Shown in pieces: positions 23,836 through 47,076 of a stretch of DNA of 64,000 nucleotides. A model generated the notes under the pieces. The model saw nothing but the letters and a program-made list of their open reading frames with translations, made no database searches and had not been told where the DNA came from. Position 1 is the stretch's first letter, and each line of letters starts with the position of its first letter. The translations under genes and the position numbers were made by a program. The stretch covers positions 26,134 to 90,133 of the forward strand of contig CAYGKO010000002.1 in assembly GCA_964350735.1 (NCBI GenBank), in the 5' to 3' direction. The DNA is from an uncultured Candidatus Saccharibacteria bacterium (GTDB lineage Bacteria > Patescibacteriota > Minisyncoccia > Phycocordibacterales > UBA918).

Positions 23836-24174
23836 ATGTTTTTGAAAATATTACAAATTGGATATTTAGTTTTCACTGGACAGCTTTTATTGCTGTTTGC
23901 AATTCGTAGTTTCCCGGCAACTGGTCTTCTTGAAGATTTAGCAGGAATACAAATGATAGTTTGGCTTATTTTCACACCATTTATTCTGATCACATCAGGT
24001 TATCGGCATTATAAAAGAATAAACTCAAGAATTGATAGCTTAGCATTCGTTATCTCAGTATGCTCATTCGTCTACTTATTTTTTATATTTTATTATGCTT
24101 ATAATTCTGGAGGTATAGTGGAAGAGTTTGACTACAGTCAAGAGAATATACCCTCAATACCAACGTCTATCTAA
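23836..24174 (+). CDS. small membrane protein (112 aa, three TM) inserted between atpA and atpG
   Basis: Hydrophobic ORF with visibly lower GC than the flanking atp genes. It starts 3 nt after the atpA stop and ends 3 nt before atpG. Confidence 0.5.
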   Translation: MFLKILQIGYLVFTGQLLLLFAIRSFPATGLLEDLAGIQMIVWLIFTPFILITSGYRHYKRINSRIDSLAFVISVCSFVYLFFIFYYAYNSGGIVEEFDYSQENIPSIPTSI

Positions 24175-37287: not shown

Positions 37288-40056
37288 ATGCATAAAAAGT
37301 TTGATAATCAGGCGATTGAAAAGAAGTGGCAAGAGAAATGGGCGGCTAATGGTCTGTACGACGTAACTGAACGTGATACTTCTAAGGAGAAAGAGTACGT
37401 ACTGGTAGAACTGCCATACCCTTCGGGAAACCTGCATATTGGCCACTGGTACGCCTTTGGTGTGCCTGACATCTACGTGCGTTTCCAGCGTATGATGGGG
37501 AAGCAAGTGATCTACCCAATGGGCTTTGATGCCTTTGGTCTGCCAGCCGAAAACGCTGCCATAAAACGCGACATCAATCCTAAAGAGTGGACTGAAGGAA
37601 ACATTGAGTACATGAAAGAGCAGCTGGGCAATATGGGTAATTCCTATACCTGGAATATGACCGCTTCCACTACAGATCCCGACTATTACAAATGGACGCA
37701 GTGGATGTTCACGCAGTTTTTTGAGAAAGGGATTGCGTATCGTGGTAAAGGGAAAGTGAATTGGTGTCCTGGCTGCAATACTGTGATCGCAAATGAGCAA
37801 GTGCTGCCAGACGACACCTGTGAGCGCTCGGGTGACAAGATCGAGAAGAAAGAAATGCCGCAATGGATGCTGAAGATCACTGATTACGCTGACCGACTGG
37901 TAGATGATCTCGATGGACTTGATTGGCCAGAGCATATCAAAGAAGCGCAACGACAATGGATTGGCCGCTCAGAAGGGGCTGAGATTGATTTTAAGCTGTC
38001 TACTGATGATGCGATGACTGTCTTCACCACTCGCCCTGATACACTTTTTGGTGCCACCTACATGGTGCTAGCGCCTGAACACTCGCTAGTAACTAAGAAT
38101 AAAGACCAGATCTCCAACTGGGACGAAGTAGTACGATATATCGAACTAACCAAGCAGAAAGATGAGCAGGATCGTCTTAACGACACCAAGGAAAAGACCG
38201 GAGTGAAATTAGAAGGAATTACTGCTACCAATCCAGCTTCTGGAGAAGAAATTCCAGTCTATATCGCTGATTACGTCTTAGCTGGTTATGGAACCGGCGC
38301 GATTATGGCAGTACCCGCTCATGATGAGCGTGATTCGGCATTTGCAAAGAAGTTTGGTATTGATATTAAACAAGTTATTGAACCAGTTTCGGATCATCCA
38401 GTAAAAGCAATTGGTGCTTTTCTCATTGATGGCAATGGTGAAATATTATTGCAGAAGCGTACGGCAGATGCGCCGACTGGAGCGGGATTACATGGGATTT
38501 TTGGTGGCAGCATTGAATCAGGTGAGACAATGAAACAAGCTCTGGTTCGTGAAATTCAAGAAGAGTTAGAGATTGAAGTTGAAGAAAATAACATTCGTAT
38601 TTTATACTTTAAAGAGTCGCGTGAGCAAGGGAAAAACCTAGCCGCAGCTATCGTATCTGGTGTTGACTTTAGCAAAGCAATATTGCATGAAGGTGAAGCA
38701 ATTGTACGAGTAAAATCATTAGCTGAAATTGATAACAAGGATCGTAATCACATCTGGGAGACAGCTAATGACGATGATATTCATTCGCTATATTCTGGAG
38801 TAGGTGCTCTTTACAATTCAGCTGAATTTAACGGCATGAGTTCAGAAGAGGCTAAGAAAGCCATCACAGAGAAAGTGGGTGGGCGAATGACAAATACGTA
38901 TCGTCTCCGTGACTGGTCTGTCGGACGACAACGATATTGGGGGGTACCGATTCCGATTGTATATGATCCCGAAGGAAAGGCGCACCCAGTACCTAAAGAG
39001 CATTTGCCCTGGATTCTGCCGGAAGATGTGGACTTCAAACCGACTGGAGAACCACCATTAGCTAAAAGTGCTGAGCTGAAAAAACGAACTGAAGATATTT
39101 TTGGAGTCGGCTGGACGCCTGAAGTAGAAACTCTCGACACCTTCGTGGATTCTTCGTGGTATTTCATGCGGTATATCGACAATCAAAACTCAGAATCGCT
39201 CGCTAGCCTTGAGGCGCAGAAAGATTGGATGCAGGTGGATACGTACTTTGGTGGGGCTGAACACACCACCATGCACTTGCTGTATTCTCGCTTTTGGCAA
39301 AAAGCACTCTATGATCTTGGGGTCGCAGTACATGATGAACCTTATAAGCGACGAATCAACCGTGGACTCATTCTCGGTCCGGACGGGAACAAAATGAGTA
39401 AAAGTAAAGGCAATGTGATTGACCCAGACGAACAAGTGAAGTTAGTGGGTGCAGATGCGGTGAAGTTGTATCTCGGCTTCATGGGACCGTATGAAGGAAC
39501 CAACTATCCGTGGGACATGGGAGGTATTGCTGGCATCAGACGCTTCTTAGAGCGCCTAAATGGGCTTACAGGACACATTGTGGAAGCTGAACCAGTGCCA
39601 GTTACTAAACAAGTTCATAAAACTATCATTAAGTTGCGTGAGGACATTCCGCAGCATAAATTTAATACTGCAATCAGTGCGGTGATGGTGTTGGTGAATC
39701 TTATTGAAAAGGAAGGAGTTTCAAAAGAGTCATACCGGACTATTCTGCAAATGATGGCCCCATTGGCCCCGCATTTAACAGAAGAATTATGGGCTGATTT
39801 GGGAGAGAGTAATTCAATTCACCTTGAAAGTTTCCCCGAAGCAGATACAGCGTTAGCAAAAGATGAGCTAGTCACTATTGGAGTGCAGATTAATGGAAAA
39901 GTACGAGGTGATATTACTATTGCTCCTGATGCCTCTGAAGAAGAGGCTTTGGCTGCTGTAGCGGATGATGAGCAGCTGCAAAAACGCCTGACTGAAGGGG
40001 AGATGCAGAAAGTGATTTATAAAGCTGGAAAAATACTTAATATCATTGTTAGTTAG
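37288..40056 (+). CDS. leuS: leucine--tRNA ligase with an embedded Nudix-like domain
   Basis: HIGH (NLHIGHWYAF), CP1 editing domain (TTRPDTLFGATYMVLAPEH ... GTGAIMAVPAHDERD), YRLRDWSVGRQRYWG, KMSKSKGN and a C-terminal anticodon-binding region. About 140 extra residues sit between the editing domain and the LYNSAEFNG segment. Confidence 0.9.
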   Translation: MHKKFDNQAIEKKWQEKWAANGLYDVTERDTSKEKEYVLVELPYPSGNLHIGHWYAFGVPDIYVRFQRMMGKQVIYPMGFDAFGLPAENAAIKRDINPKEWTEGNIEYMKEQLGNMGNSYTWNMTASTTDPDYYKWTQWMFTQFFEKGIAYRGKGKVNWCPGCNTVIANEQVLPDDTCERSGDKIEKKEMPQWMLKITDYADRLVDDLDGLDWPEHIKEAQRQWIGRSEGAEIDFKLSTDDAMTVFTTRPDTLFGATYMVLAPEHSLVTKNKDQISNWDEVVRYIELTKQKDEQDRLNDTKEKTGVKLEGITATNPASGEEIPVYIADYVLAGYGTGAIMAVPAHDERDSAFAKKFGIDIKQVIEPVSDHPVKAIGAFLIDGNGEILLQKRTADAPTGAGLHGIFGGSIESGETMKQALVREIQEELEIEVEENNIRILYFKESREQGKNLAAAIVSGVDFSKAILHEGEAIVRVKSLAEIDNKDRNHIWETANDDDIHSLYSGVGALYNSAEFNGMSSEEAKKAITEKVGGRMTNTYRLRDWSVGRQRYWGVPIPIVYDPEGKAHPVPKEHLPWILPEDVDFKPTGEPPLAKSAELKKRTEDIFGVGWTPEVETLDTFVDSSWYFMRYIDNQNSESLASLEAQKDWMQVDTYFGGAEHTTMHLLYSRFWQKALYDLGVAVHDEPYKRRINRGLILGPDGNKMSKSKGNVIDPDEQVKLVGADAVKLYLGFMGPYEGTNYPWDMGGIAGIRRFLERLNGLTGHIVEAEPVPVTKQVHKTIIKLREDIPQHKFNTAISAVMVLVNLIEKEGVSKESYRTILQMMAPLAPHLTEELWADLGESNSIHLESFPEADTALAKDELVTIGVQINGKVRGDITIAPDASEEEALAAVADDEQLQKRLTEGEMQKVIYKAGKILNIIVS
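38386..38808 (+). other. Nudix-hydrolase-like insertion within LeuRS (aa 367-507)
   Basis: IGAFLIDGNGEILLQKRTADAPTGAGLHGIFGGSIESGETMKQALVREIQEELEIEV fits the Nudix box Gx5Ex7REUxEExGU except the terminal G is replaced by E. The equivalent E. coli LeuRS linker is about 20 aa. Confidence 0.6.
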
Positions 40057-40069
40057 TTCTACAATATAC

Positions 40070-40098
40070 TTGACCCTTGTCAAATACCATGATATAAA
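40070..40098 (+). promoter_or_regulatory. candidate sigma70 promoter TTGACC-N17-TATAAA
   Basis: Seen about 60 nt upstream of the 40161 ORF. The -35 is embedded in a TTGACcctTGTCAA palindrome. Confidence 0.4.
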
Positions 40099-40160
40099 AC
40101 CCATACGCATAGGGATTTGGACCTTACACCCAAACTGAAACCATCAAAACTACAAAAAAT

Positions 40161-41186
40161 ATGATCACATTTAAACCAAAACAAGCCACCAAACGACTTT
40201 TGTCGGTATTACCCGACCGAGCCCGTGACGTGCTAGAGAAGCGCTATGGTCTCGGCAAAGACGCTGATACTGCAACCCTGGAAGCGATTGGACAGACATA
40301 CGGTATTACTCGAGAACGTGTGCGACAGATTGAAAATTATGGTATTCAGTCCATCCAAAAATCAGATGTTTATGGTGAATTCCAGGCTATCTTTGAAGAA
40401 CTGCACGCTATCATTGACGAGCTTGGTGGAGGTCTCATTGCTGAACATATTCTCCTGGAAGAGATTGCAGCTGATCCAATCCTACGTAATCATATTTATT
40501 TCCTCCTCGTACTAGGCGATCCTTTCTACCGATCAAAAGAAAACCCTTCGTACTCCCACCGATGGTTTACTGAGAAGAAGATTGCTGACATAGTCGAAAA
40601 AGGCTTGAAGAGTGTTCATGCTTCTTTAGATCGTGATGAGCTTGTTTCAGAAGAAGAAATCCTAACTCGTTTTAAAAATGAACTGATTGAGTTAGCAGAC
40701 AAACATGATGAAAAAGTTCTCAAACGATGGCTCTTGATTTCAAAAGATATTGCTCCAAACCCGCTTGGAGAGTGGGGACACGCATCAAGTCCGAATGTTC
40801 GAGTCAAAGGAATTCGTGACTACGCGTATCTTGTAGTAAAGCGCCATGGTTCACCCATGCACTTCCGTGAAGTGGCGGAAGCAATTGAGGAACTGTTCAC
40901 TAAGAAAGCCCACACTGCTACTACTCATAACGAATTGATCAAAGATGGCCGTTTTGTATTAGTTGGACGAGGTCTATACGCACTGACAGAGTGGGGTTAT
41001 TCAGCTGGGGTGGTAAAAGATGTGTTACGAGACATCTTAGATACACATGGTCCGCTATCACGGGAAGAAATCATTGATAAAGTTCGCAAAGAACGTTACG
41101 TGAAAGACAATACTATCGTTGTTAATCTCCAAGATATGAACTTGTTTAAGCGACTTAGTAACGGAACCTACGTGGTGGCTGAGTAG
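40161..41186 (+). CDS. DNA-binding protein with N-terminal sigma-70 region 4 and C-terminal HARE-HTH
   Basis: The N-terminus LPDRARDVLEKRYGL...TLEAIGQTYGITRERVRQIE aligns to RpoD region 4.2. The C-terminus PMHFREVAEAIEEL...KDGRFVLVGRGLYALTEWGY matches the HARE-HTH of the RNAP delta subunit. Confidence 0.6.
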   Translation: MITFKPKQATKRLLSVLPDRARDVLEKRYGLGKDADTATLEAIGQTYGITRERVRQIENYGIQSIQKSDVYGEFQAIFEELHAIIDELGGGLIAEHILLEEIAADPILRNHIYFLLVLGDPFYRSKENPSYSHRWFTEKKIADIVEKGLKSVHASLDRDELVSEEEILTRFKNELIELADKHDEKVLKRWLLISKDIAPNPLGEWGHASSPNVRVKGIRDYAYLVVKRHGSPMHFREVAEAIEELFTKKAHTATTHNELIKDGRFVLVGRGLYALTEWGYSAGVVKDVLRDILDTHGPLSREEIIDKVRKERYVKDNTIVVNLQDMNLFKRLSNGTYVVAE

Positions 41187-41201
41187 AGAGCTGTTGGAGA
41201 T

Positions 41202-41240
41202 AAAGAGGGCGGGAATTACTTCGTAATTCCCGCCCTCTTT
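41202..41240 (+). terminator. rho-independent terminator (aaagagggcgggaattac-ttcg-taattcccgccctcttt)
   Basis: Stem of about 17 bp, essentially perfect. Confidence 0.7.
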
Positions 41241-41257
41241 CGTGTACAATAGTAGAT

Positions 41258-42655
41258 ATGTTAGAGCATCTTTTTGGTAATCCAAAAGATATTGCAGCCA
41301 AGATACCCATTTTGGCTTTTTTCATTCGCTTTGTTTCTTCTAATGACTCAGACTATGGTGGATTTGTAGCCATTCTTTCTGTGGTGCTTTTATTTTACGG
41401 TCTCGGATTTACTGACATTTCCCAAGCGCAAGTTTTCTCTATTGTTATCGCACTCACTCCACTCTGGCTTACTTGGTATATCTTTGTAAATTTCTTTGAT
41501 AAATGGTCAGAGTACACTGGTAAGAAATTTGGTTTATATAACGGCAGGACTACTTTGCGCATCAATCTTCCCCAAGAGGTATTAAAGTCTCCTGAAGCTA
41601 TGGAGTTCGTAATTTCTCAAATTCATAACACGGCTAATCCCGACAACTTAATGCAGACCTATTTACAGGGTAAACGTCCATTAAATTTTAGTTTCGAATT
41701 AGTTTCCATTGGTGGAGATGTGCGTTTTTATGCAAACCTACCAACTAGTAAAACAAAAGCTGCTTTTGAAGCAAACATGTATGCCCAATATCCTGGGGTT
41801 GAAATAGTCGAAGAACCGGTTGATTATGCAGCTGAAATTGGACTCGATAGTGACTGGGAGTGGTTTAGTTGTCATATGAGAAAGAAAAAGGACGAAGTAT
41901 TTCCGATTAAAACATATATTGATTTTGGACTGGATAAGCTCCCAAAAGAAGAAGAGAAAGTAGACCCAATGACACCAATGCTAGAAGTACTTGGTGGTGT
42001 TGGTCCATCAGAGCGTTTATATATTCAGTACATCTGTACACCTTTTCGACCATCAAGTTTTTCAAATGGACAATTAATGTTTGGGGAAGGATCTGGCTGG
42101 GATAAAGGAGTGACAGCAGCTCTAAATAAAATTATGAACCGCGATCCAGACACGAGGCAAGCTATAGACAGTGGGAACTCTGAAGAAGTGGCTCGACTTA
42201 CTCAAGGTGAACGAGATGCCGTCGCAGCAATGGAAAGAAATGCGGGTAAGTACGCCTATAACGTTGGTATCCGCTGGGTATATGCATCTCGCCCAGGGCA
42301 TTTCGCTGGTGATCGGATCAATCCGATTATTCGGTCGTTTAGTCAGTATGACATTATCAGCGATATTAGAAATCAAATTGGTGTAGCCTGGAGAACAGAC
42401 ATTGATTACAAAGACTTGATCCCCGGTTCATACAAGAAAATTGAAGCACTTAAAGTGCAGGAATTAAAAGAGTACAAATTGAGAAAATACTTTAATAAAG
42501 GGGGCGCAGACGGTATGAAGATATTTACAGCCGAGGAGCTAGCTACCATGTTTCATATTCCTGGTCAGGTTGCATTTACTCCTACCCTAAGTCGTGTTCC
42601 ATCTACTCGAAGTGAAGCGCCAAATAACTTACCGGTTGGAAATTTACCTGAATAA
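41258..42655 (+). CDS. hypothetical protein: N-terminal 3-TM region plus a soluble domain of about 380 aa (low GC)
   Basis: No recognised domain. Ends in the motif EELATMFHIPGQVAFTPTL. Confidence 0.4.
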   Translation: MLEHLFGNPKDIAAKIPILAFFIRFVSSNDSDYGGFVAILSVVLLFYGLGFTDISQAQVFSIVIALTPLWLTWYIFVNFFDKWSEYTGKKFGLYNGRTTLRINLPQEVLKSPEAMEFVISQIHNTANPDNLMQTYLQGKRPLNFSFELVSIGGDVRFYANLPTSKTKAAFEANMYAQYPGVEIVEEPVDYAAEIGLDSDWEWFSCHMRKKKDEVFPIKTYIDFGLDKLPKEEEKVDPMTPMLEVLGGVGPSERLYIQYICTPFRPSSFSNGQLMFGEGSGWDKGVTAALNKIMNRDPDTRQAIDSGNSEEVARLTQGERDAVAAMERNAGKYAYNVGIRWVYASRPGHFAGDRINPIIRSFSQYDIISDIRNQIGVAWRTDIDYKDLIPGSYKKIEALKVQELKEYKLRKYFNKGGADGMKIFTAEELATMFHIPGQVAFTPTLSRVPSTRSEAPNNLPVGNLPE

Positions 42656-44722: not shown

Positions 44723-45553
44723 ATGGTTACGGTAATAAAAGCTGATGGAACAGCGGAGGAGTTTCAAATCCAAAAATTAAAACGTTCGCTTCGTCGATCA
44801 GGTGCAGTTCGAGAAGAAGTACGCGAAATTGCTGCCGAAATAGAAAAGGAACTAGTTGATGGAATGAAGACTCAAGAGATCTACTCACGAGCCTTTTCAC
44901 TATTGCGTGACAGTGAGCAGCCAGTGGCCGCACGTTATTCACTTCGAAGAGCCTTGTTTGGACTTGGTCCTACCGGATTTCCATTCGAAGATTTCCTAGC
45001 TCGCTTGTTTGAAACCGAAGGGTATACAACAAGAACTAGGCTAGAGCTTAAAGGGAACTGTACCACTCATGAAATTGATGTAGCTGCATACAAAGATGAT
45101 CACTCATTCGTGGCGGAAGCAAAATTTCATGCCCGGCCAGGAATCAAATCTGATCTCCAGGTTGTAATGTATTCCAACGCTAGAAAAATGGATTTGGTGG
45201 ATGCAAAGATCTGCAACGCTGATATATGTGGTGTAACAAACCTCATGGTTATTACAAATACCAAATTTACTCACACTGCAGAATCATATTCTGAGTGTGC
45301 AGGACTTGAATTATTGAGCTGGGACTATCCAAAACAAAACAATTTACACGATCGCATTCAACGAGCCGGCATCTATCCCATCACTGTTTTGCAGTCACTG
45401 TCCGGCGCTCAAAAAAAGGCTTTAATTGAACGTGGGGTAATAATTTGTGGCGATATTCTTAAAAAACCCCACCTTCTTCGGCACATACACATCAGCACTA
45501 AAAAAACTGAGGCAGTACTTTCTGAAGCTCGTCAACTCTGTAAGGAAATATAA
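44723..45553 (+). CDS. ATP-cone domain fused to Mrr-like restriction-endonuclease (PD-(D/E)xK) domain
   Basis: The N-terminus MVTVIKADGTAEEFQIQKLKRSL resembles the ATP-cone of NrdR/RNR. Residues 75-150 (FEDFLARLFETEGYTTRT...HEIDVAAY...VAEAKF) follow the Mrr_cat D...(E/Q)xK layout. Confidence 0.5.
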   Translation: MVTVIKADGTAEEFQIQKLKRSLRRSGAVREEVREIAAEIEKELVDGMKTQEIYSRAFSLLRDSEQPVAARYSLRRALFGLGPTGFPFEDFLARLFETEGYTTRTRLELKGNCTTHEIDVAAYKDDHSFVAEAKFHARPGIKSDLQVVMYSNARKMDLVDAKICNADICGVTNLMVITNTKFTHTAESYSECAGLELLSWDYPKQNNLHDRIQRAGIYPITVLQSLSGAQKKALIERGVIICGDILKKPHLLRHIHISTKKTEAVLSEARQLCKEI

Positions 45554-45602: not shown

Positions 45603-46154
45603 ATGTCAGAAGCAGAAAAGCAAGAAGGGCAAAAGACAGTAGTCGCCTTTATCGCTGGATTACTTATCGGTGGTCTACTCGTTTGGGTCTTCAGTGGTCC
45701 AACACATGATGGTGAGCATAAGGAAGGAATGCATGATGATGAAGCAGGCGAAATGGCTGAAGAAATGATGTCGGATGACTCGTCAGACGAAGCAGTGTCT
45801 ACTGGTCAAGAAATGACCATTGCGGCAGTTGAAATGCAAACTGGTGATGGTGCTATCGAGGTATCAGATCAGGCAGCTAGTTCTGCAGTTGTGATTGATA
45901 GCGCAACCTTCCCAAATGATGACGGCTGGATCGCTGTGCGATCATACCAAAATGACCAACTTGGAAACATTCTTGGAGCAGCTCGATTTAGTAAGGAACA
46001 AGGTTTGGTACCAGAAGAAGTACCACTACTAGTCCCTACTACAGTTGGAAACTCATACGCGGTAGTCTTCTTTACGGAAGATGGTAACCGTGAGTTTAAT
46101 CTTTCAGGCGATGCTCAAGTAGAAGGTGTGTGGTCAACGTTTGTGGCTAAATAG
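45603..46154 (+). CDS. hypothetical acidic membrane-anchored/secreted protein
   Basis: N-terminal TM (VVAFIAGLLIGGLLVWVF), then an Asp/Glu-rich low-complexity stretch and a beta-rich C-domain. Confidence 0.4.
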   Translation: MSEAEKQEGQKTVVAFIAGLLIGGLLVWVFSGPTHDGEHKEGMHDDEAGEMAEEMMSDDSSDEAVSTGQEMTIAAVEMQTGDGAIEVSDQAASSAVVIDSATFPNDDGWIAVRSYQNDQLGNILGAARFSKEQGLVPEEVPLLVPTTVGNSYAVVFFTEDGNREFNLSGDAQVEGVWSTFVAK

Positions 46155-46171
46155 CTTCTATCGATTGACAG

Positions 46172-46198
46172 AAAAAAGCCCTCATAAGGGCTTTTTTC
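46172..46198 (+). terminator. rho-independent terminator (aaaagccct-cata-agggctttttt)
   Basis: Hairpin followed by a T6 run. Confidence 0.65.
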
Positions 46199-46221
46199 TT
46201 GCGTGGTATACTAGATACATT

Positions 46222-47076
46222 ATGGCTGATTACGTATACAAATATAATCCAAATCGAAACGCTGATTGGAATTATGGTGGCAAAAAATGGCGGTTATCTC
46301 GCTCAAAACTCGACTATTTTATTGAGTGTCCTCGCTGTTTTTATGTTGATAACAAACTAGGGACAAAGCGACCTGGTTTTCCATCGTTCAATTTAAACAT
46401 TGCGGTAGATGAACTGTTTAAAAAAGAATTTGACGTACATCGAGCAGCTGGAACACGTCATCCAATTATGGAGCAGTACGAGATTGACGCTGTGCCGTTT
46501 CAGCACAAAGACATTGATACCTGGCGCGAAAACTTTGAAGGCATTGAATACAAAGACACTGAGACCGGTATGACTATCAGTGGAGCGGTGGATGATATTT
46601 GGGTCAAGCCAAACGGGGATCTCATTATTATTGACTACAAATCTACTTCTAAAGACGGGACTATAGACAAGTTAGGAGATAGTCCTTGGGAGCAGCAATA
46701 TACTAGACAACTCGGTGTGTACAAATGGCTCTTGGAACAAAATGGCTTTAAAGTAGCCGATATCGGATACTTGGTGTACGCAAATGCTAGTAAAGATGAG
46801 GCTGGATTTGATAACAAACTAATTTTTGAAAGTACTTTGGTCTCGGTGCCAACAGATACTGACTGGATCGATGGAACTTTGGATAAAATTAAGGCGTGTC
46901 TTGAAAGTGAATCAATCCCGCTCTCTGGCCCAAATTGTGAATTTTGCCCGTACCGTGAAGCTGCCGGGAAAAAGCTCTTAGCAATCCATCAAGCTCAAAA
47001 GACAGCCGCTAAAGAGACTGGTAGCACCAACCCTTCTGACACCATCGCAGCTATCAAGAGTAAATATGCCAAGTAG
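46222..47076 (+). CDS. Cas4/RecB-like PD-(D/E)xK nuclease with Fe-S cysteine cluster (DUF83-like), stand-alone
   Basis: GAVDDIWVKPNGDLIIIDYKST is the RecB-family D...D/EYK motif. N-terminal CPRC plus C-terminal C-x13-C-x2-C match the Cas4 4-Cys pattern. I chose the start at MADYVYK over the track start at 46126. Confidence 0.65.
   Translation: MADYVYKYNPNRNADWNYGGKKWRLSRSKLDYFIECPRCFYVDNKLGTKRPGFPSFNLNIAVDELFKKEFDVHRAAGTRHPIMEQYEIDAVPFQHKDIDTWRENFEGIEYKDTETGMTISGAVDDIWVKPNGDLIIIDYKSTSKDGTIDKLGDSPWEQQYTRQLGVYKWLLEQNGFKVADIGYLVYANASKDEAGFDNKLIFESTLVSVPTDTDWIDGTLDKIKACLESESIPLSGPNCEFCPYREAAGKKLLAIHQAQKTAAKETGSTNPSDTIAAIKSKYAK

Follow-up and report, generated by a model that had tools for sequence, protein, structure and literature searches.

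The DNA analysed here, a 64-kb window (64,000 nucleotides) from an uncultured Candidatus Saccharibacteria bacterium (contig CAYGKO010000002.1 of assembly GCA_964350735.1, positions 26,134 to 90,133), encodes a 341-amino-acid protein in which region 4 of the sigma-70 factors (hereafter sigma4) is followed by four tandem winged helices, one of which is a HARE-HTH domain. The open reading frame (ORF) lies on the + strand at 40161..41186 and starts with ATG. Throughout the family of this sigma4-HARE protein, the sigma4 residues that correspond to the contacts of the primary sigma factor with the promoter -35 element are invariant or nearly so, and upstream of the gene we find promoter elements that are specific to it, including a -35 hexamer that forms one arm of an inverted pair. 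The reading that we tentatively favour, with a probability of roughly 0.4, is that of a -35-reading DNA-binding protein which competes with the primary sigma factor (sigma-A) at -35 elements and represses its own promoter.

Pfam profile searches place Sigma70_r4 (PF04545) at aa 13-67 of the protein, across profile positions 1-50/50, with 51.4 bits against a gathering threshold of 24.1 (E 7.4e-14), and HARE-HTH (PF05066) at aa 220-278, with 37.6 bits against 25.9 (E 2.9e-9). A preliminary description of this DNA had named these two profiles as a check on its domain assignment, and both thus score above their gathering thresholds. Searching PDB sequences with the protein returned sigma region 4 chains only (top match 4g8x, E 1.2e-8). 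The AlphaFold2 model, built from an alignment of 104 family members (mean predicted local distance difference test score, pLDDT, 93.2; predicted template modelling score 0.78), consists of a four-helix sigma4 (aa 1-68; pLDDT 94-97 over aa 1-70) and four consecutive winged helices with boundaries at aa 72-137, 138-210, 214-281 (the Pfam HARE-HTH) and 282-341, each of them ordered helix-strand-helix-helix-strand-strand. In Foldseek comparison with PDB, the N-terminus falls on sigma region 4 (1ku3, 1rio, 4g6d, 7kuf and others) with a probability of 1.0 and a root-mean-square deviation (rmsd) of 1.0-2.4 Å, and the HARE-HTH unit is modelled as a winged helix-turn-helix (HTH) fold (helices 218-229, 235-246 and 252-261, strands 265-267 and 272-275; pLDDT about 95). 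The assignment of the N-terminus to sigma-70 region 4 in the preliminary description therefore stands, and the peptides which it quoted are present in the protein (TLEAIGQTYGITRERVRQIE, aa 39-58; GRFVLVGRGLYALTEWGY, aa 263-280). Its HARE-HTH domain is equally genuine, but occupies the third of four winged-helix units and not the C-terminus, so that a fusion of two modules, although correct with regard to both domains, understates the architecture.

Because profile comparison of the domain sub-alignments with hhalign relates the winged helices to one another (unit 2 versus unit 4, 92%, E 5.6e-7; HARE versus unit 4, 90%, E 1.8e-6; unit 1 versus unit 2, 77%, E 2e-5; unit 2 versus HARE, 76%, E 2.4e-5), the array probably represents four diverged HARE-type repeats. 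In Pfam, unit 4 yields weak DUF7669/DUF3320 matches only. Three domains are basic, with family mean charges of about +5 and isoelectric points (pI) of about 10 for sigma4, HARE and unit 4; units 1 and 2 are acidic or neutral. The same three domains are the best conserved, foremost the HARE unit (mean majority-residue frequency 0.66), and units 1 and 2 are more variable. The median pI of the family is 9.5.

The protein is not a sigma factor. In agreement with the preliminary description, no sigma region 1, 2 or 3 was detected with Pfam or NCBIfam (PF04542 gave no match), and when E. coli sigma regions 2-4 were used as a tblastn query, region 4 alone matched. NCBIfam sigma models match by their region 4 part only, the best of them with 45-48 bits against cut-offs of 354-555 (7- to 15-fold short), and the model of the extracytoplasmic function (ECF) superfamily gives 27.5 bits against 42.9. 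From the intact -35-reading residues and the annotation of some relatives as RpoD, one might imagine a sigma factor that is degenerate or minimal but still able to direct promoter recognition. However, with no region 2 such a protein would lack core binding, -10 recognition and melting; region 3 is missing too, sigma4 stands at the N-terminus with winged helices after it, and complete RpoDs exist in the phylum. This explanation, akin to one that the preliminary description had itself named as undoing its proposal, is refuted for practical purposes. A further idea, that of a split sigma factor in which the protein supplies a region 4 missing from its partner, was rejected as well: 119 Patescibacterial RpoDs have full region sets.

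Sigma4 shares with region 4 of the group 1/2 sigma-70 factors (RpoD/SigA/RpoS) the full four-helix domain and the -35 contacts kept in TRERVRQIE, with 35% identity to E. coli sigma-70 and 33-51% to Patescibacterial RpoDs. It differs in its position, as region 4 is C-terminal in sigma factors, whereas here it is N-terminal, detached from regions 1-3 and followed by the winged helices. R51, E52, R55 and Q56 align with E. coli sigma-70 R584, E585, R588 and Q589, the established contacts of the -35 element. In a set of 100 representatives whose identity to the query is only 32-59%, R51, E52 and R55 never vary and Q56 is conserved to at least 90%; a second set, of 104 members, shows no variation at any of the four. 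Of 376 family members, 341 have the motif TRER[VI]RQ[IL]E, and TRER[I/V]RQIE is found in 116 of the 119 RpoDs. Since the recognition helix is common to both, the sigma4-HARE protein and RpoD should read the same hexamer. A module that served for docking on RNA polymerase (RNAP) alone would have no need of these residues, and their conservation is the strongest argument that sigma4 is used for DNA recognition and not for docking alone.

The promoter of the gene (Table 1) provides the second line of evidence. The upstream promoter and the TTGAC/GTCAA palindrome of the preliminary description are real: TTGACCCTTGTCAA at 40070-40083 includes the -35 hexamer TTGACC (40070-40075), which is separated by a 17-nt spacer from TATAAA. 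For comparison, we used 80 related loci from GTDB species representatives, which together with the window give 81 orthologous upstream regions. The consensus TTGAC...ATGnTATAAAT occurs in 77 of these, far beyond chance. A generic consensus promoter scan is uninformative (25 sites versus 37.7 expected) and misses the sigma4-HARE promoter because its rule demands T at the last -10 position. Overlapping the -35 element is an inverted pair of hexamers 2 bp apart, TTGACnnnTGTCAA, which, scored as an exact TTGAC-N3-5-GTCAA palindrome, is present in 31 of the 81 promoters (the window and 30 loci); six further orthologous promoters have it with one mismatch. Its half-sites are invariant across 17 different spacer sequences. 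Nearly all exact occurrences in the 848 kb of related loci (30/32) fall at the sigma4-HARE promoter. The window holds two occurrences only, the second of which (TTGACTACAGTCAA, 24128-24141) lies in the ~340-bp intergenic region between the genes for ATP synthase alpha and gamma.

Such a palindrome may alternatively be the operator of a different regulator, for instance of the CRP/FNR type, in which case the sigma4-HARE protein would not be autoregulated and would have its targets elsewhere or bind non-specifically, like a nucleoid-associated protein. Indeed, TTGAC-N4-GTCAA fits the established FNR/FixK-type consensus, the one-mismatch variants often read ATCAA, and the second palindrome belongs to the ATP synthase operon of the window. 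Yet the opposite strand shows a perfect TTGACA at the right half-site, just the hexamer that sigma4 would be expected to read, and a concentration of 30 of 32 occurrences at a single gene would be unusual for the box of a global regulator. Moreover, neither the window nor the 80 loci gave a CRP/FNR homologue in tblastn, although the test is weak in that it covers these stretches and not whole genomes. On balance, we consider a foreign operator unlikely.

Further downstream, at the predicted transcription start, lies a second gene-specific element, the “+1 box.” A CGCAT[AT]G box is present in 43 of the 81 orthologous regions, and the longer form CGCATTG[AG][AG]G occurs 29 times at the sigma4-HARE promoter against six times elsewhere on both strands of the 848 kb, none of these six in a promoter context. 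A conserved RNA element in the 5′ leader was considered and rejected, as RNAalifold gave no consensus structure, per-sequence z values are near 0 and no Rfam match rose above the gathering threshold. Given a leader that has no conserved RNA structure, the +1 box probably acts as DNA. A regulon search of the 848 kb of related loci with the palindrome and the +1 box found no convincing sites beyond the sigma4-HARE promoter.

According to the reading that we favour, the sigma4-HARE protein would be a housekeeping-grade Parcubacterial protein whose sigma4 reads TTGAC(A) hexamers with the residues of the primary sigma factor. The two basic C-terminal HARE-type winged helices would provide extra DNA contacts or contacts with RNAP, and the two acidic ones in between a spacer or protein-contact region. 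Because it should recognise the same hexamer as sigma-A region 4, the protein would compete with the holoenzyme at -35 elements, and would do so at the DNA, not through binding of sigma. The preliminary description had thought of an anti-sigma-like competitor. Rivalry at -35 elements fits, given the (near-)invariant contact residues, the identical recognition-helix motif of Patescibacterial RpoDs and the placement of the gene's own -35 hexamer in a gene-specific inverted pair; an anti-sigma factor in the usual sense does not, as nothing suggests binding to sigma, and no homology to known anti-sigma families appeared in Pfam, NCBIfam, PADLOC or PDB sequence searches. The gene's own promoter, with its consensus -35 and extended -10 elements, is predicted to be very strong. 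Because its -35 hexamer has a partner in inverted orientation at a distance of 2 bp, the promoter could accommodate two copies of the protein and be shut off by them, a putative negative autoregulation which, insofar as it depends on the inverted pair, would be limited to the Kaiserbacteria-like clade. The centres of the half-sites are ~8-9 bp apart, a distance that would allow two HTH modules to bind the same face of the DNA helix, in the manner of LuxR/GerE-type dimers. The likeness to the LuxR/GerE/FixJ HTH lies in this proposed principle, whereby a sigma4-type HTH outside a sigma factor pairs on inverted repeats near the -35 element, as is established for that group. The two differ in that the domain described here is closer to true sigma region 4, keeps the -35-reading residues (the GerE/LuxR profile gives no match to the protein at E<=1) and is coupled to a winged-helix array as the effector part, and not to a receiver or ligand-binding domain.

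Several observations count against self-repression or against DNA reading as the primary role. Roughly speaking, only the closer relatives have the palindrome, and it is absent upstream of the distant family members at loci L081-L083; at a further locus, L084, the sigma4-HARE gene overlaps leuS. The palindrome is a lineage-level regulatory feature, and since distant members lack it, autoregulation through it cannot be the core function of the family. It also fits an FNR/FixK-type box, TTGA-N6-TCAA, to which another regulator could bind. Furthermore, the window protein is mildly acidic overall (pI 6.3). Finally, docking on RNAP is what both domain types are best known for, and the position of HARE as the most conserved domain would also fit a conserved protein partner.

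These last points lead to what we regard as the foremost, if doubtful, alternative, namely an RNAP-bound accessory subunit, in line with the accessory factor of the preliminary description. In holoenzymes, sigma region 4 binds the beta flap tip. The N-terminal domain of the delta subunit, for its part, sits between the beta-prime shelf and jaw (PMC7749165). An accessory subunit would correspondingly place its sigma4 on the flap tip, replacing sigma-A region 4, and its HARE unit on beta-prime, and would modulate initiation, sigma exchange or recycling instead of regulating as a free DNA-binding protein. RNAP binding is suggested here solely by the roles of the modules in other proteins, both being homologous to known docking modules. 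It would agree with a level of conservation that exceeds that of the aminoacyl-tRNA synthetase and tRNA-modification genes nearby and would befit core machinery, with the HARE unit being the most conserved part, and with a natural in-frame fusion, P0263 (L081 6001-8301), in which a complete sigma factor (regions 2, 3 and 4) precedes a family member. This fusion is, however, a singleton protein, present on two contigs, and no homology was found between the gene downstream of it and the downstream gene of the window. Neither sigma, rpoA/B/C/D nor rpoE genes occur nearby in the 80 loci; a linkage to rpoD or rpoE, which the preliminary description had suggested looking for, is likewise missing in the window. 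The Patescibacterial RpoDs retain their own region 4, leaving no vacant docking site, and the invariant -35 contacts and three basic domains point to nucleic-acid binding.

Comparison with delta (RpoE) of Firmicutes further reduces the appeal of an accessory subunit. The resemblance consists in the HARE-HTH winged helix with its signature (D)GRF..(G)RG.Y.L..W. In delta, an N-terminal domain of ~90 aa is joined to ~80 aa of disordered, acidic tail with a net charge of -47, and this tail is the functional part (PMC7749165). In the present protein, by contrast, HARE is internal, basic and one of four repeats, and there is no polyanionic tail: the chain ends in a folded winged helix (pLDDT 75-92), and this C-terminal unit has a charge of 0 in the query and +5 in the family. 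The RNAP-delta equivalog model TIGR04567 scores 29.1 bits, under its 42-bit cut-off. On these grounds, the name “RNA polymerase delta subunit” given to relatives by JGI is an over-annotation. A -35-reading competitor and an RNAP-bound accessory are not mutually exclusive. More far-reaching, and in our estimate improbable, would be a universal, near-essential Parcubacterial factor that provides a second sigma region 4 in trans and reads the -35 element while docked on RNAP (flap and/or beta-prime jaw).

By sequence, the protein belongs to an uncharacterised Parcubacterial database family, “sigma factor-like helix-turn-helix DNA-binding protein.” A word-indexed search gave at least 8000 matches (clusters at 90% identity); the best 120, all with both Pfam domains, share 78-100% identity with the query and range in length over 319-372 aa, with 341 aa in most of them. 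When 50%-identity cluster representatives were searched exhaustively, 573 had E<=1e-30, and among the 150 matches listed of those 573, most align over their full length of ~340 aa. Profile searches add members that are ~40-60% identical. Source names are Patescibacteria/Parcubacteria throughout, including Kaiser-, Nomura-, Niyogi- and Nealsonbacteria, Paceibacterota and Minisyncoccia, bar a few evidently mislabelled metagenome-assembled genomes. The names in databases are generic, namely the one above (NCBI), “hypothetical protein” or “DNA-directed RNA polymerase delta subunit” (JGI). With thousands of entries for which both Pfam domains are precomputed, the word “novel” in the preliminary description was too strong. 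The paper of Aravind and Iyer that defined HARE-HTH in 2012 reportedly included bacterial proteins joining this domain to sigma-factor and RNAP alpha-subunit features, so that the pairing of sigma4 with HARE as such is probably not new. We found no paper on the sigma4-HARE family in bacteria of the Candidate Phyla Radiation (CPR), nor did literature searches via PF05066 or DUF8128 retrieve one. Other rare fusions are P0226 and P0157; one ends in the HTH of DnaA domain IV and one begins with SecF, the latter possibly a gene-calling artefact.

The genomic setting is that of a housekeeping gene. Across the 80 loci, genes follow one another on one strand in the order leuS, sigma4-HARE gene, DUF8128-type membrane protein, yceG, mnmA and an ATP-cone/Mrr-like gene. 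The mean identity of the sigma4-HARE protein to the window copy is 77%, compared with means of 64.5% for leucyl-tRNA synthetase (LeuRS) and 45% for YceG and medians of 74% for YchF and 61% for MnmA in the same loci; the gene is thus under strong purifying selection, and base composition is uniform. Downstream, a hairpin resembling an intrinsic terminator has a minimum free energy of -39.4 kcal/mol (z -8.4; 0/200 shuffles as stable), and 73 of the 80 related loci have a hairpin of -20 kcal/mol or lower within 90 nt of the stop codon. Having its own promoter and its own terminator, the sigma4-HARE gene is an independent transcription unit. The DUF8128 neighbour follows it in 77 of 80 close loci and is also kept by distant family members (PF26449; L082 7091-8314, L083 7137-8369, L084 7016-8176), including those in which the leuS linkage is lost; the neighbours in the window and L082 are related with a BLASTP E of 2e-52. 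The two genes may form a functional pair. In L084 they overlap, and in L082 a VirD4/TraG-like ATPase gene comes next.

This conserved setting bears on another possibility, that of a modified-DNA reader or member of a defence system, the usual context of HARE-HTH in prokaryotes. Comparative-genomic studies have proposed that HARE-HTH fused to restriction-endonuclease domains discriminates modified DNA (PMC10853773), and such a published role for the fusions speaks for the idea. The proteins of restriction, BREX and Dnd systems have a HARE-type winged helix in common with the Parcubacterial family but adjoin methylases or nucleases, whereas the family shows housekeeping synteny and is far more conserved. 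Outside CPR, the Abditibacteriota protein BCM94557.1 (568 aa) can be aligned with query aa 15-337 (E 2e-15), across sigma4 and the entire array of winged helices. It is encoded on plasmid pIAD-21 (AP024153.1; L085 26-1732), is annotated “RpoD” and has region 4 only in Pfam; a 1119-aa Eco57I/MmeI-like methylase is encoded directly downstream (L085 1733-5092). Its label is likely a misannotation, and the protein a non-CPR relative in a restriction-modification context. The best NCBIfam/PADLOC match of the window protein is to MzaA of the MZA anti-phage system, over sigma4 only (NCBIfam 51.8 bits against a cut-off of 800, positions 645-704/726 only; PADLOC, the sigma4 part only), and the protein is no more an MzaA than it is a delta subunit. 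Against a defence role stand the stable linkage with leuS, yceG and mnmA in 80 loci, the strong conservation and the uniform composition, which are the opposite of defence islands, as well as the lack of any full-length PADLOC match. Searches of a phage collection, BFVD and PHROGs gave sigma4-level matches only, with no phage homologues beyond. We hold this explanation to be very improbable. An origin from phages or plasmids was rejected too, given that phage matches are sigma4-level only and that the one distant plasmid homologue is that of Abditibacteriota.

The shape of three to four consecutive winged helices is shared with the tandem arrays of the SelB C-terminal domain, RPC62/RPC82, Dcc1 and UFL1/DDRGK1. 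Foldseek matches to such proteins have E values of 4e-3 to 5e-2, TM scores of 0.15-0.24 and rmsd above 12 Å with no sequence relationship, so that the resemblance is weak and no more than an analogy of architecture.

Some observations concern the surrounding genes. Shine-Dalgarno-like motifs within -20..-4 are scarce, being present at 6 of 35 + strand ORFs of the window and 8 of 80 orthologues of the sigma4-HARE gene. The LeuRS gene (37288-40056) has a NUDIX hydrolase domain inserted after the editing domain (aa 372-440, about 38401-38607, Pfam E 9.7e-13), a rare, lineage-specific insertion that is matched in only two of the 80 related loci. The gene at 44723-45553 encodes an ATP-cone, an Mrr_cat domain (restriction-endonuclease fold) and an AF1548-like C-terminal domain; as it keeps its place in 63 of the 80 loci, with about 63% identity, it is housekeeping-like and not defence-like. 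The conserved block further includes a gene for a PD-(D/E)XK/Cas4-like nuclease at 46126-47076, a few genes beyond the sigma4-HARE gene, and L083 also has a PDDEXK_1 gene.

Table 1 Features of the sigma4-HARE gene and its surroundings, in coordinates of the window
Feature	Position	Strand	Remarks
-35 TTGACC within an inverted pair of -35-type hexamers (TTGACC-CT-TGTCAA), putative operator	40070..40083	+	From sequence and ortholog conservation
Extended -10, TGaTATAAA	40090..40098	+	17 nt downstream of -35; TG 40090-40091, TATAAA 40093-40098
“+1 box,” ACGCATAGG	40105..40113	+	Predicted transcription start; family consensus CACGCATTGAGG
Sigma-70 region 4 domain, aa 1-68	40161..40364	+	Four helices including the -35-reading HTH; net charge +5
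Winged-helix unit 1, aa 72-137	40374..40571	+	Acidic, less conserved; charge -8 in query, family mean -2.3
Winged-helix unit 2, aa 138-210	40572..40790	+	Neutral to acidic, less conserved
HARE-HTH winged helix, aa 214-281	40800..41003	+	Basic; family mean charge +5.2, pI about 9.8
Winged-helix unit 4, aa 282-341	41004..41183	+	HARE-like; charge 0 in query, family mean +5.1
Intrinsic-terminator-like hairpin	41200..41250	+	~20-bp stem, then UCUUUCGU
DUF8128-type membrane protein, downstream neighbour	41258..42655	+	Downstream in 77/80 close loci

What is newly established is the architecture of sigma4 with four HARE repeats, the invariance of its -35-reading residues, its above-average conservation and the gene-specific promoter elements; misleading names of relatives, “RNA polymerase delta subunit” and “RpoD,” are corrected at the same time. 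If the protein is an ordinary autoregulated DNA-binding protein, the value of these findings would lie mainly in annotating more accurately a large family whose function is unknown. If instead it acts as a second region 4 in trans, sigma-A and a separate polypeptide would divide -35 recognition between them, or the polypeptide would gate it; the family would then stand apart from sigma, delta and classical repressors, as a general initiation factor or global promoter gatekeeper of a new class. Transcription in CPR bacteria is essentially unstudied, and their genomes encode very few regulators. A protein that is single-copy in the loci examined, more conserved than the adjoining LeuRS, equipped with an intact -35-reading module and expressed from a promoter with conserved elements of its own is a strong candidate for a central role in Parcubacterial promoter choice.

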